From assembly GCA_032986305.1 (NCBI GenBank), contig GCA_032986305.1_3672.1: DNA of 64,000 nucleotides; one strand, written 5' to 3'. The notes beneath the pieces were generated by a model. The model did no database searches, was not told the DNA's origin, and saw only the letters and a list, made by a program, of their open reading frames with translations. Both the position numbers and the translations under genes were made by a program. Source of the stretch: a phage. Positions 7,764-63,954 of the stretch are shown one piece after another; the first letter of the stretch is position 1; every line of letters starts with the position of its first letter.

Positions 7764-8330
7764 ATGGCTGTCAATGTGGCTTACAACACAGGAAAGCTTG
7801 ACAGAGACATTGGGTGTCTTGTCCTTTCAGATACAGAAGAGTATTGGGGTTATGGGTTGCTGTCAGACCCACACCCGAGCAACCTTGTATCAACAGTGCT
7901 ATACCGCTACGACCCTGTGCCAACGGTACACGACAAAGACATTCACGACCTTCGGATCAAGTGTCTGGAAGATCTGCTGAACAATGGTTGCAATGATCTG
8001 CGGGTAGCCAAAGAGAAGCTTACAAACATTCACAAAGAGGAAGTGATGAGCACCCTCAGTAAGAGATCAGTGCACAAAAAGATGATGCTGAACTTTGCAA
8101 TGGGTATCTACATGGACGGGTATAAGGGAGGTGATCCGATTCTCAAGCTTCGCTGCCCAACACTGTGGGAAAGGGTGGTTGACAGTAAGGACGGCACTGC
8201 CCTGCTTGAGCTTCACACTGCAGGTTGGATATGGCGGTATGTTGATGGATACCCTCTATGGGCATGTGGGCCTGGGGAATTTGTTGACAGGCCTAGTGCG
8301 GTGGTGGACTTGCTATTGCAGTTTGAATAA
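7764..8330 (+). CDS. hypothetical protein (188 aa)
   Basis: ORF in array. Confidence 0.45.
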   Translation: MAVNVAYNTGKLDRDIGCLVLSDTEEYWGYGLLSDPHPSNLVSTVLYRYDPVPTVHDKDIHDLRIKCLEDLLNNGCNDLRVAKEKLTNIHKEEVMSTLSKRSVHKKMMLNFAMGIYMDGYKGGDPILKLRCPTLWERVVDSKDGTALLELHTAGWIWRYVDGYPLWACGPGEFVDRPSAVVDLLLQFE

Positions 8331-42117: not shown

Positions 42118-43029
42118 TTATTTTCCGTTAACTTTGTTGTAGTTTCCCTGCTCAGATGGGACTATGGTAGAAGGTCTTCCATATTCCTGATAATACCAAT
42201 CAGCAGCAGATTGGGTAACACCGTTTTCATCCGTCCACATCATAGATTTGTATGGCTGCCACTCTTCTGCGGCATTTGTGGATGCAGTGTCTGCAAATGC
42301 CCCTGTGTCCCTCTTGTTACCTACGTTACTGCCATTCTTACAGTCGTTGACAGCACCTTTTTGCTGGGTCTTGCCTACTTTCTTAGGGTTGCTGTATACA
42401 GTTGCATTAACAACCTTGTTCAAGTAGAATGTGCGGAACTCTGTAAGTTCTACATCAAACACCATCGCAGCACCTTCACCAACAGACTTGTTGGCAGAAA
42501 GGCTGGTTATGATGTAGTTCTCAAGGAGTCTTTCCTCGGTAACCAAAGAAACCAACTGGCGCTTATTAATGATCTCAGTCAAAGCCTCCAGTGCAGCGCC
42601 CGGTCGCATAGATGCTGCAGGGTTTTTAGAGTCAGTATTCCTGTCAATGTAGTTTTGCTCATAGATTATATGTGGTGATGTATTTACCCTGCCAGTAAAA
42701 GAAAATACACCATCTTTAATTACAGCGTGGTCTGACAGGGTAGATTTATCTTCCACCGCAAAATCAGTCTTATCAACAGTATGTTTGAAAGAGTAGTTCT
42801 CAATCTGATCGAAGATGATGGCAAGATCGTTAGTAAAGTTTTTACCCTTCATCTCCGTATTGCGACCACCATAGTTAAGACCGCTGACAAACATAGTGTA
42901 CTTTACATCGCTTTCAGTTTGCTGTTCTGCCTTTTCAGCCTTTGGAGATTTAACCTCTTGAGGCTTGTACAGGTCTTTTTCATCAACTATATTGCTTGGC
43001 ATAACCTCTCCAGGACACTCCGATACCAT
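42118..43029 (-). CDS. hypothetical tail protein (303 aa)
   Basis: First ORF downstream of the tape measure gene; start may be the internal Met (MPSNIV). Confidence 0.4.
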   Translation of the reverse strand: MVSECPGEVMPSNIVDEKDLYKPQEVKSPKAEKAEQQTESDVKYTMFVSGLNYGGRNTEMKGKNFTNDLAIIFDQIENYSFKHTVDKTDFAVEDKSTLSDHAVIKDGVFSFTGRVNTSPHIIYEQNYIDRNTDSKNPAASMRPGAALEALTEIINKRQLVSLVTEERLLENYIITSLSANKSVGEGAAMVFDVELTEFRTFYLNKVVNATVYSNPKKVGKTQQKGAVNDCKNGSNVGNKRDTGAFADTASTNAAEEWQPYKSMMWTDENGVTQSAADWYYQEYGRPSTIVPSEQGNYNKVNGK

Positions 43030-49328: not shown

Positions 49329-49799
49329 TTACTGTCCGATTTTAAAGGTTGCAGATTCAAGCAGCACATCGTAATGCCGCATAGCCTCGTTGAAGCCTTT
49401 CTCTTGTGCCCACTGCTCGCTAACAGTAGGATTACTAAACTGCCCAGCCTCAATAACAAACTGGATAGCTTTGGCCCCTGTGTCCCCCATCTGCTTAAGA
49501 ATAGCCTCTGCACTTGATCCTCTAGCCATAGCTCTCAACAATTTTTCTGTCAAGGTCTGTAGTTGAGTGCTGTGAAATGCAAAGGCTGTCTCCATGAAAT
49601 TGCGAACAGGCAGCCCGTTCCAACCGAAGTTGTGAATGGCTGCCAATGTTGCCATATTTAAGCCTGACGGGTGAGGTTCGTCATAAAAGCCGTAGGTTAT
49701 TGTTTTACTTTCAAGTCTCACAAGTTCTTTGTAGAAGCGATCTAAACGCTTTAGGTTGAACCTTGTTTGACATCTAACCTTTAGCATTATATCCCTCAC
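49329..49799 (-). CDS. hypothetical neck protein (156 aa)
   Basis: ORF between head and tail modules. Confidence 0.4.
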   Translation of the reverse strand: MRDIMLKVRCQTRFNLKRLDRFYKELVRLESKTITYGFYDEPHPSGLNMATLAAIHNFGWNGLPVRNFMETAFAFHSTQLQTLTEKLLRAMARGSSAEAILKQMGDTGAKAIQFVIEAGQFSNPTVSEQWAQEKGFNEAMRHYDVLLESATFKIGQ

Positions 49800-50520: not shown

Positions 50521-51360
50521 TTATGCCAGTGCAGCCTCAAAATCTTTCATCATATTTTGGAAAGTTTTTGCCTTACTTAAGGTAACACCGTGCTCTTTGG
50601 CGAAGGTTTGGAGTGCATCTTTTGAACCACTTTTGTCATCTTCGTTGTTAAGAGCTGCAGCCTGCTGCAGTATGGCATCAATATCATTGTGAGAAGATCT
50701 TGATTCTTGTGCCTGTTCAGGCTCCTGCTCAGCACCTCCTGGTGCAGCCGGATCTGGAGATTCCTCACCACCAGGTTCAGTAGGACCTACAGGCGGCTCC
50801 GGCTCTGGTTCAGGCGGTGGAGCTATCGTAGAGACAAGTCCAAGATTTACAACCTGAGAACGTTTCTTAGGCCACTCAATGGTGAAAGTTTGGGTATCTT
50901 CTTCATAAACAACGTTGCATTGCTCATCGTTTATGGTCACTTTTTTGGGCATCCCTTCAGGGTCCCACAGATGACCTTCTGCTACGGAAACCTTGAAAGC
51001 AGCATCTACCTCTTTAAACACCGAAGGAGTGAGTGTAATATTGACATCACCGCTTTGAAGTGTTAAAGTGCTTTCATCAAGATTTTCTGTGAAGAACAGA
51101 AGAATAACACCCATACGGATGGTTGAAATGCCTGTATCAATTGGCAGGCCTGTGTGTTTTGCAATCTTCTCGAAGAAGTCTACAATCGTTCTGCATGGAT
51201 AGTGAACACTTCCAATAACGAACTCTGTTGGTGGAAGCAGGGCTGATAAACCAACATTGATTTCTGGATTGTATTGTGCTAAAAATTGATAAAAACTTAA
51301 CTGATTGTTGAAAACTCTTAATAGAGGATCATACTCGACTGGATATACGGCTCTCTTCAC
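50521..51360 (-). CDS. hypothetical head-associated protein (279 aa, GTG start) with Pro/Glu-rich linker
   Basis: ORF following the capsid terminator; AGGAG before GTG; PPPEPEPEPP linker. Confidence 0.45.
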   Translation of the reverse strand: MKRAVYPVEYDPLLRVFNNQLSFYQFLAQYNPEINVGLSALLPPTEFVIGSVHYPCRTIVDFFEKIAKHTGLPIDTGISTIRMGVILLFFTENLDESTLTLQSGDVNITLTPSVFKEVDAAFKVSVAEGHLWDPEGMPKKVTINDEQCNVVYEEDTQTFTIEWPKKRSQVVNLGLVSTIAPPPEPEPEPPVGPTEPGGEESPDPAAPGGAEQEPEQAQESRSSHNDIDAILQQAAALNNEDDKSGSKDALQTFAKEHGVTLSKAKTFQNMMKDFEAALA

Positions 51361-59650: not shown

Positions 59651-59727
59651 TGGTCTCCACGGAGTGATTCGAACACTCGACCTCCTGATCCCAAATCAGG
59701 CGCTCTACCAAGCTGAGCTACGCGGAG
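59651..59727 (-). tRNA. tRNA-Pro (anticodon TGG)
   Basis: Manual fold: acceptor CTCCGCG/CGTGGAG, D-arm TAGCTCAGCTTGGTAGAGC, anticodon loop TTTGGGA, T-arm GAGTGTTCGAATCACTC, encoded CCA. Confidence 0.75.
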
Positions 59728-59738
59728 TATTTACTATT

Positions 59739-59813
59739 TGGTGGCCCTGGGTGGAATTGAACCACCGTCTGGCGATTATGAGTCGCTTGCTTGAACCTTC
59801 CAGCTACAGGGCC
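59739..59813 (-). tRNA. tRNA-Met (anticodon CAT; Ile-lysidine type not excluded)
   Basis: Manual fold: acceptor GGCCCTG/CAGGGCC, anticodon loop CTCATAA, T-loop GGTTCAATTCC, encoded CCA. Confidence 0.7.
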
Positions 59814-59814
59814 T

Positions 59815-59890
59815 TGGTGCTGATGGCAGGACTTGAACCTGCAACCTATTGATTACAAATCAATTGCACTACCAATTGTGCTACATCAGC
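59815..59890 (-). tRNA. tRNA-Thr (anticodon TGT)
   Basis: Manual fold: acceptor GCTGATG/CATCAGC, D-arm GCACAATTGGTAGTGC, anticodon arm ATTGA-TTTGTAA-TCAAT, T-arm GCAGGTTCAAGTCCTGC, CCA. Confidence 0.8.
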
Positions 59891-59895
59891 AAAAA

Positions 59896-59994
59896 GGTGC
59901 TAGGCGGTGGAATCGAACCACCTATGTATTCAACGACTACCTCGTCTATTTTCAGGATTAAAAATCCTCGCCCTTGCCAAAGGGCTTACCTAGC
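59896..59994 (-). tRNA. atypical tRNA-like gene (about 99 nt; canonical reading of the loop would give anticodon TTT)
   Basis: Good acceptor (GCTAGGT/GCCTAGC), D-arm (GCCC-TTTGGCAA-GGGC) and T-arm (GGTGG-TTCGATT-CCACC), but about 30 nt separate the anticodon stem from the T-arm; CCA not encoded. Confidence 0.45.
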
Positions 59995-60092
59995 TCAGTA
60001 TGTTGACCATGTTGCTAGTCGGCGATGACGACTGTAACATTTGATAATCCGGTTCTGCTTCCGGCTTTCGCTTAATTACAAGGTCAACAATG

Positions 60093-60183
60093 TGGCGGAG
60101 AGTAATGGAATCGAACCATCATCGAGTCATCCTCAATGGGACGGTTTTCAAGACCGCTTGAGCACCATTGCTCCCTACCCTCC
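60093..60183 (-). tRNA. tRNA-Ser (anticodon TGA), long variable arm
   Basis: Manual fold: acceptor GGAGGGT/ACTCTCC, anticodon arm GCGGT-CTTGAAA-ACCGT, long variable arm, T-loop TTCGATT, CCA. Confidence 0.65.
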
Positions 60184-60297
60184 TTTATAAATTATACTGA
60201 TAATGACACTGATTTTCGAGCAGTTAGTGACTAGTATAAACGACGATAAATATCAATGCCATTATCTGTATTATTTACGCATCTAAAAATATAAATT

Positions 60298-60384
60298 TGG
60301 TGGGGAGTGGTGGAGTCGAACCACCCGAGTCGCAATGACAATAGATTTACAGTCTACACCGCTACCTCTACGGGATAACTCCCC
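60298..60384 (-). tRNA. tRNA-Tyr (anticodon GTA), long variable arm
   Basis: Manual fold: acceptor GGGGAGT/ACTCCCC, anticodon arm GTAGA-CTGTAAA-TCTAT, variable arm, T-arm GGTGGTTCGACTCCACC, CCA. Confidence 0.7.
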
Positions 60385-60388
60385 AATT

Positions 60389-60463
60389 TGGCACCCCGTA
60401 CTGGACTCGAACCAGTGTCAACGGCTTAGAAGGCCGCTGCTTTATCCACTAAGCTAACAGGGC
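60389..60463 (-). tRNA. tRNA-Arg (anticodon TCT)
   Basis: Manual fold: acceptor GCCCTGT/ACGGGGT, D-arm GCTT-AGTGGATA-AAGC, anticodon arm GCGGC-CTTCTAA-GCCGT, T-arm ACTGGTTCGAGTCCAGT, CCA. Confidence 0.75.
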
Positions 60464-60559: not shown

Positions 60560-60898
60560 TTAGCTATTGCTAACAGGCTGTATTTCTGTAGTAAATGGCA
60601 TAAAAGGTGCTGGTTTTTCAGCCTCTTCCACTACCATCTCTTCCTCTTCACCAAACATCTCATCATATTCTTCCTGCATTCGGTCTGCCTTATCAAGAAC
60701 ATACTCTGCAATGCTTTGACGAATATTTTGTTTGGTTTTCGGGTCCAACATCAGCTCTCTTAAAACTTTGTGAGCTTCTGGAACCATCGCTATAAAAGAT
60801 TCCTTCATATCAAGGATGTTCTTCTCTAGCTGAATGGCGTTGGACTCCTCTTTCAGAGGTCTGCCTCTACGGCGACGCTTTTTAGTTGTATCCGCCAT
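60560..60898 (-). CDS. hypothetical basic/acidic protein (112 aa)
   Basis: ORF track 60560..61018 trimmed to Met (MADTTKKRRRRGRP) preceded by GGAGG and the promoter at 60927-60955. Confidence 0.45.
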   Translation of the reverse strand: MADTTKKRRRRGRPLKEESNAIQLEKNILDMKESFIAMVPEAHKVLRELMLDPKTKQNIRQSIAEYVLDKADRMQEEYDEMFGEEEEMVVEEAEKPAPFMPFTTEIQPVSNS

Positions 60899-60926
60899 GT
60901 TTCCTCCATTATCACGTGATAGGTGG

Positions 60927-60955
60927 ATTTTATCATAGCAAATACTGATTGTCAA
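60927..60955 (-). promoter_or_regulatory. sigma70-like promoter
   Basis: Minus strand TTGACA (60950-60955), 17-nt spacer, TAAAAT (60927-60932). Confidence 0.55.
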
Positions 60956-60960
60956 GTTCG

Positions 60961-61200
60961 CCGCAGGGTGGTATTCCCTGCGACTTGTCCAGCGTCCTGG
61001 ACCAGCAAGACCCAACAAGTGGGTTACCAGAGGCCTATTACCCGCGCTTCGGCTCGACCTTGTTACAGGTTGGCTGGGGTCACATCGTCATGTGCTGGCT
61101 GCCCCTACCATTTTAAGTGTGGTGCACTATCAAGCCCTCTAAGGGGAACTCAGCCTTCTCCGAACCCTGTTTCAAAGCATCCAGAGATAAAGCCATCAAA
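60961..61200. other. GC-rich structured island A (candidate structured RNA or foreign insert)
   Basis: About 240 bp of high GC in an AT-rich context with consecutive hairpins (cgcaggg-tggtatt-ccctgcg; gtccag-cgtc-ctggac; gcgc-ttcg-gc); no convincing coding potential. Confidence 0.3.
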
Positions 61201-61244: not shown

Positions 61245-61487
61245 TCATTGTAAAGCACAAATAAATAAAACATACTTAATTTGTTTGTTATCAGGCTCAG
61301 GGTAGAAGTAGAAGATCTTGCTATCACCGATCTGAACACCACCATCCCAACAACATAGCCCATAACCTGTATTCATACAAGCTAAGTCGTTGGCAAAATC
61401 TATTGCATCATCCAGTGCACGAAATTCACCTTCATCTTCTAAATAATCCTCATTCATGGAACGAAAAACGAGCTTAACCTTAAACAT
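61245..61487 (-). CDS. hypothetical protein (80 aa)
   Basis: ORF in minus-strand array. Confidence 0.4.
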   Translation of the reverse strand: MFKVKLVFRSMNEDYLEDEGEFRALDDAIDFANDLACMNTGYGLCCWDGGVQIGDSKIFYFYPEPDNKQIKYVLFICALQ

Positions 61488-61563
61488 AGCATTACCTGTA
61501 GACCTCGTAAGTTAAAATTGCATCACATCATATTGCAGATCTTATCAGGTAACACTATTTTTG

Positions 61564-62341: not shown

Positions 62342-62460
62342 AGCTGCCTCCTCTTCAAGTTATAGAAAAACTCACTGTATCACTTTGTAACGAGCTTTTC
62401 TATCAAACTGGTGCGATTGCATTACCTGGTATAGTTTATATAGCTGTGGAGCGATTTAGG

Positions 62461-62700
62461 GGCCTTCTTGTCAGTTTCCACACATAAACTTCATCCAAGC
62501 TCGCGCGGGAGGCTCTCAACCGACTCCTTACGGCGCTGGCAAGCTTTCGTCGGTGGTCCACATCAGTGCTCGGCCTTTGGCCTGCGCTATCGCTTCGCTC
62601 CCACACATGTTAACAGACCTGCATGTATGCACTTCTGTTATTGTGTGCACCAAGGAGGCCCGGCATCTCGCCCCTCGTAGGCGAGTGCCAATGAAGGGCC
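62461..62700. other. GC-rich structured island B (candidate structured RNA or foreign insert)
   Basis: About 240 bp of high GC directly upstream (minus sense) of the 61763..62341 gene; multiple potential stems; only an implausible 70-aa plus ORF. Confidence 0.3.
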
Positions 62701-62844
62701 GACACTACCTATAGTAAGTAATAATTTTAAAACATGGTACTTAGGATCTAGTATATTCTACATAAGTTAAGTATATGTACTTAGTACCATAAGTACTAGA
62801 TCTTTTATTTTTTATTATTTAGTTATTTTAGTTATATTCTTTAT
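62701..62844. other. AT-rich tract with short inverted repeats (candidate DNA-unwinding or regulatory region)
   Basis: Very AT-rich 140 bp containing gtacttag / tactag-type inverted repeats, adjacent to the palindrome array. Confidence 0.35.
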
Positions 62845-62928
62845 GTGTCCGTATCACGGACAGTTAGTGTCCGTATTACGGACAGATGTGTCCGCGTGAC
62901 GGACAGTAGTGTCCGTATCACGGACAGT
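62845..62928. repeat. array of four 18-bp palindromic sites (TGTCCG-N6-CGGACA) at 21-22 bp spacing
   Basis: tgtccgtatcacggacag (x2), tgtccgtattacggacag, tgtccgcgtgacggacag; perfect half-site symmetry; spacing of about two helical turns. Confidence 0.8.
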
Positions 62929-63001
62929 TACTGACCTCTGTTCCAGAGCGAACATAAAACATACGAATCCTTATAGTACAGATATTTAAGTTTTTACTGG
63001 T

Positions 63002-63352
63002 CTAACCAGTTGTTGACATTCGAATAACCTCTTCTGGTGGCAAAACTTTGGAAAATGTACATCTTTTACCTCTCCCTTGTGTGGATATTTCAACCACTCC
63101 TGCACATTCTAAAGTTTTAACACACGCTGCTGCTTTTGTTTTCTTTATCCCAACATCTGCTGCAATTTTCCTTGTGCTGGGTGTGAAGCGTGAATTTCCT
63201 CCAAGCTTATACCAGTTGTGCAGGTAGCAGTATACGATCTTGTCATATAAGTCAAGAACAACAACCTCCCCAGTTGTGTCATTCAAAACTTTTGACATAG
63301 ACAGTATTTCAAGGGGGACTTTAAGATATAGCAGCTTATCCCCATCTTTCAT
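63002..63352 (-). CDS. putative winged-helix DNA-binding protein (116 aa)
   Basis: Segment TRKIAADVGIKKTKAAACVKTLECAGVVEI has HTH-like character; gene lies directly beside the palindrome array. Confidence 0.4.
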   Translation of the reverse strand: MKDGDKLLYLKVPLEILSMSKVLNDTTGEVVVLDLYDKIVYCYLHNWYKLGGNSRFTPSTRKIAADVGIKKTKAAACVKTLECAGVVEISTQGRGKRCTFSKVLPPEEVIRMSTTG

Positions 63353-63399
63353 ATCTCCTGATTCTCCTTGTGTGGCAATTTTCTTTAAAATAGCAGGGA

Positions 63400-63954
63400 T
63401 TACTCCCCGCTGTCAATAGCAAGACTCATTGCAATACGGTATGCCTCTTCTAATGGTAAGAGTCTCCCCCACACATCCCAACCGACATCAAACTGCCTGC
63501 CAAACAACTGCTGTGTGGTTCCGTGAGCATGACCGAACAGTTGGACTGATCCGTGAGGCTTTCTGTTCCACTTTGCAAACTGGTAATGGCTCATACAGAT
63601 CAAATTCTTGTTGTGGCGAAGCTCGTAATAATCTACAACCTCATGACCGAACTCTTTCATAATTCTGACAGTCGTCCTTGTGTCATGGTTACCACGAACA
63701 AGAATAATATGTCCGTTCAACATATTTAGAACATCTGGGAGCAATTTGTTGATATTCTTATCATTAGTGCACGCAATATCTCCCAAGTGAAACACAGTGT
63801 CTGCAGGTGACACAACAGAGTTCCACTTGGTGATGATTCCCGCATTCATACTGTCAAGATTGTGATCATACTGAGATCTGTGTTTTTGACATGAATCGAA
63901 CTCCATGACCCGCTGGTGGAGAAAGTGTGTGTCGCTTGTTACAAAGTATTTCAT
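63400..63954 (-). CDS. calcineurin-like metallophosphoesterase (Ser/Thr phosphatase-like)
   Basis: Motifs SDTHF (DxH), GDIACTND (GDxxD), VRGNHD (GNHD/E), GHAHG. Confidence 0.7.
   Translation of the reverse strand: MKYFVTSDTHFLHQRVMEFDSCQKHRSQYDHNLDSMNAGIITKWNSVVSPADTVFHLGDIACTNDKNINKLLPDVLNMLNGHIILVRGNHDTRTTVRIMKEFGHEVVDYYELRHNKNLICMSHYQFAKWNRKPHGSVQLFGHAHGTTQQLFGRQFDVGWDVWGRLLPLEEAYRIAMSLAIDSGE

Follow-up and report, generated by a model that had tools for sequence, protein, structure and literature searches.

The window analysed is a stretch of 64,000 nucleotides of phage DNA, and the region under study matches 119 records of Vequintavirus, the rV5-like myoviruses of E. coli, at 89–99.6% identity; by sequence match the window is a Vequintavirus (rV5-like) genome. 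Some of these records carry Campylobacter phage labels. Record CP057073.1, listed as an E. coli plasmid but with 137,565 bp about the size of an rV5-like genome, matches modules M1 and M8 described below and may represent a phage that its host harboured or that was assembled together with host DNA. The local gene order, all on the minus strand, is phosphoesterase (63954–63400), HTH protein (63352–63002), a gap of 660 bp, a 192-aa protein (62341–61763), small genes and a tRNA cluster (59651–60463). On the same strand, 59896–59994 is a 99-nt tRNA-like gene with a four-base anticodon according to ARAGORN, to which Rfam gives no score and which other records annotate as tRNA-OTHER or tRNA-Lys. The gene of the terminase large subunit, also on the minus strand, is split into an N-terminal part (58547–57801) and a C-terminal part (56806–56024), with an HNH homing-endonuclease gene (57684–56992) between the two.

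The initial annotation had described a GC-rich block at 62461–62700, lying between the 192-aa gene and an AT-rich, palindromic tract. Both the block, hereafter island B, and its location are confirmed: the GC content of 62500–62699 is 0.60 and that of 62400–62599 is 0.53, as compared to a window mean of 0.444, and the segment of 200 nt with the highest GC content in the whole 64 kb begins at 62501. Only three regions of the window reach a GC content of at least 0.55, namely 8111–8310, 60941–61180 (island A) and 62461–62720 (island B). The conserved core of island B spans about 62496–62712 and is shifted slightly to the right of the block first described. Island A is a run of GC-rich hairpins (GCAGGG..CCCTGC, GTCCAG..CTGGAC, ACCCA..TGGGT), which overlaps a strong sigma-70-like promoter (60955→60927) ahead of the gene for a 113-aa protein (60563–60901) whose N-terminus is basic and whose C-terminus is acidic. 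A repeat search found no repeat joining the two islands, in agreement with the absence of similarity noted earlier by eye.

To the right of island B lies the AT-rich tract (62713–62844, no strand), which contains an imperfect palindrome and is a candidate DNA-unwinding element, with a GC content of 0.305 in 62700–62899. It is followed by four 19-bp dyad-symmetric iterons GTGTCCGTATCACGGACAG (62845–62927, no strand), which were located by repeat and motif search and are spaced by 22, 21 and 21 bp; four matches are recorded against zero expected, and none occurs elsewhere in the 64-kb window. The 116-aa HTH protein encoded next to them (63352–63002, minus strand) is a candidate origin-binding initiator, as judged by its PHROG and Pfam matches. 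It matches phrog_12838, 'replication initiation protein', at 2.5e-80, phrog_8102 at 7.5e-6 and also phrog_428, while HTH_36 of Pfam reaches 24.5 bits against a cut-off of 25, and DUF6945 also falls just under its cut-off. The Murica and HMD-6 records annotate the same protein as a replication initiation protein.

Read on the minus strand, the layout is initiator gene, four iterons, AT-rich tract and island B, an order which by analogy matches a lambda-like origin arrangement. Ori-lambda comprises O-bound iterons with dyad symmetry, an adjacent AT-rich region, a flanking palindrome and a linked initiator. The likeness lies in the four ∼19-bp dyad iterons placed at about two helical turns, the AT-rich tract, the HTH initiator and the swapping of cassettes described below. 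The differences are that the iterons lie outside the initiator gene, that the initiator has only 116 aa, that the replisome is encoded by the phage itself, which is virulent, and that the GC-rich hairpin array of 220 nt is without a described lambda counterpart. DnaA boxes were not found near the candidate origin. The nearest skew change lies ∼1.7 kb from island B in rV5 coordinates; in the rV5 genome paper the genome is reported to be circularly permuted, and the origin could not be defined.

On the plus strand, island B is made up of four to five GC-rich hairpin modules, each with CCACA(CA) at its end. The leftmost module (62442–62484) is poorly conserved, ends in TTCCACACA and contains GCGATTTAGGGGCC, with the motif at 62478; GCGATTTAGGGGCC also adjoins the plasmid arrays discussed below. 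The flank 62342–62495, which includes this module, is 76% identical in the divergent phage L071. Module M1 (62503–62563) consists of a 6-bp helix, in which ACCGAC (62519–62524) pairs with GTCGGT (62549–62554), a 24-nt loop (62525–62548, TCCTTACGGCGCTGGCAAGCTTTC) and the end GGTCCACA. The next hairpin module (62564–62607) carries AGTGC-GGCC TTT GGCC-GCGCT at 62565–62588 and ends in CTCCCACACA; nothing in the plasmids corresponds to it in sequence, its place there being taken by other modules. A variable module (62610–62650) follows, with the hairpin AACAGA..TGCA gta TGCA..TCTGTT and then TGTGTGCAC; about 18 nt of it are deleted in rV5 and Murica, as evident from the alignment, and the segment 62564–62652 is 77% identical in L071 and rV5. 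The last module, M8 (62654–62703), is a 15-bp hairpin at 62657–62700 preceded by GGAGG, whose stems are GGCCC/GGGCC, GGCA/TGCC and, beside a bulged T, CTCGCC/GGCGAG. None of the five modules is assigned to a strand.

The initial annotation had allowed that the segment might turn out to belong to a protein-coding gene, and ORFs of 56, 31 and 70 aa are indeed present across island B, some of them annotated in other records. Variable columns in these ORFs are distributed over the three codon positions as 14/18/15, 8/7/6 and 16/13/18, with no third-position bias; the frame is interrupted at codon 3 by an in-frame stop in phage B9-1 and by a premature stop in L071. Differences between phage and plasmids, as shown below, are compensatory in stems rather than synonymous. 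A small protein, either rV5 ORF 78 (62606–62436, minus strand) or the product of the 70-aa ORF on the plus strand, is hence scarcely credible in spite of the annotated frames, and island B is non-coding.

Extensive potential secondary structure had been noted for the whole block, and only part of it exceeds chance. The fold of 281 nt covering island B is better than dinucleotide shuffles (z = −2.15 for the minus strand and −2.91 for the plus strand), and the M8 hairpin (62657–62700) folded alone is significant with DNA parameters (z −2.5/−2.0). The left half, M1+M2, folded alone is not better than its shuffles (z +1.05/+0.37). The strand of island B is not assignable because both strands fold equally well, and neither G-U asymmetry nor folding energy assigns it to one. 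The Infernal scan suggested in the initial annotation was run against Rfam 15; at the gathering cut-off only tRNAs of the window pass and island B matches no family, and at E≤10 nothing relevant is found in the window or in the plasmid-like elements. The best sub-threshold match, rli43, reaches 22.8 bits against the 100 needed and runs across the AT-rich tract.

A host-derived origin, which the initial annotation had proposed to examine by BLASTN, is not borne out. In a blastn search of complete E. coli genomes, the only matches of island B fall in small circular plasmids of 13.2–13.7 kb, in non-coding DNA without annotation; derivation from the host was rejected, there being no chromosomal match in these genomes. 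One matching record of 39.6 kb is a trimer of such a plasmid-like element. An 18-mer scan of genome contigs gave 59 matches in unrelated GC-rich bacteria, a number estimated to lie at about the chance range, and was uninformative.

After metagenome and protein-based look-ups, the plasmid-like elements number 13 in total (L005, which is NZ_CP020521.1, L067–L070, L079, L081 and L086–L091), with contigs mostly of ∼13.4–14.3 kb; the contig of L079 has a terminal overlap of 55 nt, as expected for a circular assembly. The elements encode a major capsid protein, a Dit-like protein, a Neck1/tail-completion protein, a tape measure protein and an O-like HTH initiator; terminase and portal genes are absent from them. 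Their Dit-like protein shows 55% amino acid identity to the product of window 42316–42873 and the Neck1-like protein 48% to that of 49359–49700, and one capsid-protein cluster of the elements comprises 441 member sequences. The initiators are O-like proteins of ∼300 aa, matching initiator families. Window 62496–62563 is 82% identical to L005 12381–12448, and window 62653–62712 is 85% identical to L005 12634–12694, as compared to only ∼50% for the proteins of phage and plasmids.

In the non-coding region of the elements, hairpin modules rich in GC, with CCCACACA at the end of each, are followed by ∼115 nt (C-rich, then AT-rich) and then by iterons. M1 is found in nine of the 13 elements and is identical in all nine, beside at least four iteron types, and M8 is present in L005 and L091. 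The remaining four elements have a different first module, M1b, which resembles M1 in design with a stem, a large loop and a CCACA end; its version in L088 has the same GCGCGGGAGACTC lead-in, and M1b has no phage match. Most of the elements end the array with M6 and lack M8. No single module is therefore indispensable to the plasmids, and the pair M1/M1b suggests alternative specificities. The modules of the plasmids vary in number, order and even orientation, one plasmid having an inverted module. When the search was reversed, with the array of L079 as the query, M1 was the sole part to match a phage, and the matches lay in 119 Vequintavirus records only. Phage and plasmids agree in order and orientation, with M1, then M8 or M6, then a spacer of 115–130 nt, then iterons, but place the initiator gene differently, past the iterons in the phage and before the array in the plasmids.

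These 13–14 kb elements are probably undescribed satellites of rV5-like phages. In the literature, no paper describing the elements was found, and nothing specific on rV5 satellites, origin or transcriptome. Several further observations concern the elements. In L091 (NTNY01000053.1, a contig of 30.1 kb), inserted DNA brings in two APH (aminoglycoside phosphotransferase) genes as well as a DDE transposase and regulators of the TetR type; with the APH genes, a putative phage satellite would carry resistance genes. Window 62410–62429 is a 20-nt GGTGCGATTGCATTACCTGG, which occurs in the opposite orientation (CAGGTAATGCAATTGCACC) beside the plasmid arrays, and a related GCATTACCTG lies at 61486–61498. 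A further match of 35 nt (94%) joins window 50671–50705 to L005 2594–2628, where the plasmid side is non-coding and just past a TTGACA-17-TATAAT promoter; its interpretation as a site in a terminase gene was rejected, 50671–50705 being inside a 279-aa head-related gene.

Comparison of phage and plasmid versions reveals how the modules change. In M1, 10 of 61 positions differ, of which six make up three compensatory pairs in the one 6-bp helix, ACCGAC/GTCGGT in the phage and GCTGCC/GGCAGC in the plasmids; every other stem position stays paired. The 24-nt loop is invariant except for one A/C site, which is also polymorphic among phages. The covariation score of M1 was reached by none of 500 shuffles, and slid controls fail. 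In M8, the window and L005 disagree in seven columns; four of these account for two compensatory changes from G-C to T-A, and no pair is broken. M8 of L091, as read from its sequence, is a third version with an extra compensatory change from C-G to T-A in the outer stem. The plasmid modules with three hairpins share one architecture with unrelated stem sequences, which are always Watson-Crick paired and have loops mostly of 3–4 nt.

Duplex-DNA protein sites are not expected to evolve by stem compensation, and a single-stranded form, DNA or RNA, is hence implied; stems kept by compensation together with loop sequence kept as such point to the same form. The three pairs of M1 and the two to three of M8, with their conserved loops, come from only two to three independent versions, and M1+M2 folds like its shuffles. 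With no more than two distinct versions of M1, its three pairs could also represent a single event, and paired changes can arise without selection through template switching in quasi-palindromes. A covariation test among the phages alone fails because the phage core is too conserved.

Another possibility is that island B is a non-coding RNA gene or structured leader; its RNA might be regulatory or antisense, serve as a leader for processive antitermination or as a pre-primer resembling RNA II, or be a protein sponge exposing CCCACACA / UGUGUGGG in its linkers. The compensated hairpins, the conserved loop and the overall fold (z −2.2 and −2.9) are compatible with this. So are a weak promoter-like TTGTCA-16-AATTAT on the plasmid plus strand upstream of the array, a terminator-like last plasmid module in which an 11-bp stem precedes TTTCATTT, and an extended −10 TGGTATAGT at 62427–62435 on the phage plus strand. 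However, no Rfam family matches even at E≤10, no promoter or terminator was scored within 62400–63000, and the candidate −10 is lost in L071 while the island is kept. Both strands fold equally, one plasmid module is inverted, and the plasmid hairpins, Watson-Crick paired with loops mostly of 3–4 nt, are unusual for RNA; a literature search found no transcript data. The primers of ColE1 (RNA II) and T4 (R-loop) likewise have a structured region ahead of the point where DNA synthesis begins, and in the plasmids the distance from the promoter-like site to the array end is ∼600 nt, but the iterons and initiator here imply another mode of initiation. An RNA of this kind is considered unlikely. The earlier proposal of an origin or a non-coding RNA locus is supported in its first half, the link to an origin, by the iterons, the AT-rich tract, the initiator families and the recurring layout. 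Its second half, with no Rfam family, no conserved promoter or terminator beside the island in the phages and equal folding of both strands, is possible but not supported.

The relation of island B to the initiator is evident from L071, a divergent rV5-like contig of 137 kb, IMG/VR having yielded only one rV5-like contig. At the same locus (1819–2378), L071 carries an unrelated initiator/iteron cassette, consisting of a 143-aa initiator-like protein (phrog_8102) and five palindromic GATACATATTTGCATCAGAT iterons. M1 of L071 is 89.7% identical to that of the window and the M8 segment 85%, as compared to 34% for the iteron and AT-rich segments, which are non-homologous, the AT-rich tract being also partly deleted. 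Origin-specificity modules are therefore exchanged at this locus, as in lambdoid phages. The synteny of island B with iterons is thus observed in three initiator/iteron contexts, and the constancy of M1/M8 beside differing iterons and initiators indicates that initiator/iteron cassettes vary while island B remains their constant partner. Kept in L071 and beside at least four plasmid iteron types, it is apparently independent of initiator specificity. Among the close Vequintavirus relatives, island B is conserved no more than its flanks. The 192-aa gene in the flank and the 116-aa initiator did not carry the comparison to more distant taxa, because both are confined to Vequintavirus.

The motif at the module ends also shows a strand polarity centred on the iterons. 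Six of the 22 copies of TGTGTGG/CCACACA in the window lie within 62478–63518 (1.04 kb), a clustering reached by random placement in 9 of 20000 trials. CCACACA is on the plus strand to the left of the iterons and TGTGTGG on the plus strand to their right, with one exception at 63469; the polarity flips at the phage iterons although all the genes there are on the minus strand, and it also flips at the iterons of three plasmids (L005, L079 and L081). In a 13.7-kb plasmid, the heptamer occurs 17 times against 1.35 expected, a 12-fold over-representation. An iteron-centred polarity fits a replication-related signal, the sites being few and with exceptions (63469 and the L071 sites).

A strand polarity tied to replication is likewise characteristic of the single-strand transposition of IS200/IS605 and REP/RAYT. 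The modules might be hairpin cassettes of a selfish or recombinogenic nature (REP/BIME- or MITE-like), collecting where a non-coding gap tolerates them and moving between phage and plasmid, with no dedicated function for the phage. The variable number, order and orientation of the plasmid modules, each bounded by the same motif of 7–8 nt, would be accounted for, as would the common architecture and differing sequence of the three-hairpin modules and the abundance of the motif in the plasmid. Nevertheless, the phage array has kept its make-up in 119 genomes, the one 18-nt deletion excepted, and island B is single-copy in each phage genome and not dispersed. Among the genes of the elements as a family there was no transposase and nothing RAYT-like, and the M1 loop has kept its sequence in both phage and plasmid. 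These properties make mobile cassettes quite an unlikely explanation.

The absence of terminase and portal genes from the elements brings in packaging. According to the literature, Vequintaviruses are circularly permuted headful packagers for which no pac site has been mapped, and M1, with or without M8, could be such a pac site, copied by the terminase-less elements in order to be packaged. M1 is the sole phage-matching part of the L079 array, with its matches restricted to Vequintavirus; the terminase and portal genes lie 4–8 kb downstream of island B on the same strand, and the two first modules, M1 and M1b, resemble alternative specificities. Pac sites are read as duplex DNA, however, for which covariation preserving the stems is unexpected; packaging leaves the fixed position and orientation beside the iterons unexplained, no public record starts at island B, and four plasmids lack M1. 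The situation resembles that of P4 with P2 cos and of cos-type SaPIs in that terminase-less elements have copied a short non-coding helper sequence, but differs from cos/pac mimicry in that the shared piece lies at the origin, varies by stem compensation and is missing from some elements. A pac site at M1 is on this evidence improbable.

The best explanation, which we hold tentatively, is that island B is a cis-acting origin accessory that folds as single-stranded DNA, for example a priming or helicase-primase entry signal. The initiator would bind the iterons and open the AT-rich tract of a presumably active origin; island B, next to the opened tract, would then turn single-stranded and fold into hairpins. 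These hairpins, with their conserved loops and linkers, may mark an ssi-like entry or priming site for the phage helicase-primase and replisome, the likely readers of the island, in the form of DNA rather than RNA. A primer made on the minus strand at island B would be extended rightwards across the origin. Plasmid-like elements with the same modules beside their own iterons could use the same trans-acting factor.

The oriV of IncQ plasmids (RSF1010) offers a precedent, where iterons and an AT-rich segment are accompanied by the ssiA/ssiB hairpins, which are active only when single-stranded and are read by an element-encoded primase, with strand-specific signals on both sides. In island B, hairpins are kept by covariation and the polarity of the motif flips at the iterons; it shows no sequence similarity to ssiA/ssiB or the ssi of G4 type and has four to five different modules rather than two related hairpins of 40 nt. 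Island B may thus be analogous to IncQ ssiA/ssiB or G4 ssi in mechanism, not in family membership. In the oriV of RK2, an iteron origin, a GC-rich block abuts the AT-rich 13-mers, much as island B adjoins the candidate unwinding element. The block of RK2 is smaller and not known to require hairpins, and it belongs to an origin with DnaA boxes, which are absent here. Against an origin accessory count the fold of M1+M2, which equals shuffles, the conservation of the island at the level of its flanks, the replaceability of modules in the plasmids and the lack of DnaA boxes.

In a bolder reading, possible but somewhat doubtful, island B would be the phage copy of an undescribed cis element, a modular hairpin array punctuated by CCACACA and flanking iteron origins, with alternative specificities (M1, M1b; M8, M6), that lets 13–14 kb satellites plug into the replication or packaging machinery of rV5-like phages.

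The rV5-like phages are widely used in therapy and biocontrol, and the locus provides a concrete and testable candidate origin with an unusual structured accessory. Through the modules of island B, a strictly virulent myovirus is tied directly, by sequence, to small satellite-like plasmids of E. coli, one of which carries aminoglycoside-resistance genes and a tetracycline-type repressor. If the link is functional, it would define a new satellite family and the cis site by which a satellite exploits its helper, and would bear on phage therapy, through satellite-mediated interference and gene transfer, as well as on the recruitment of replisomes by origins.
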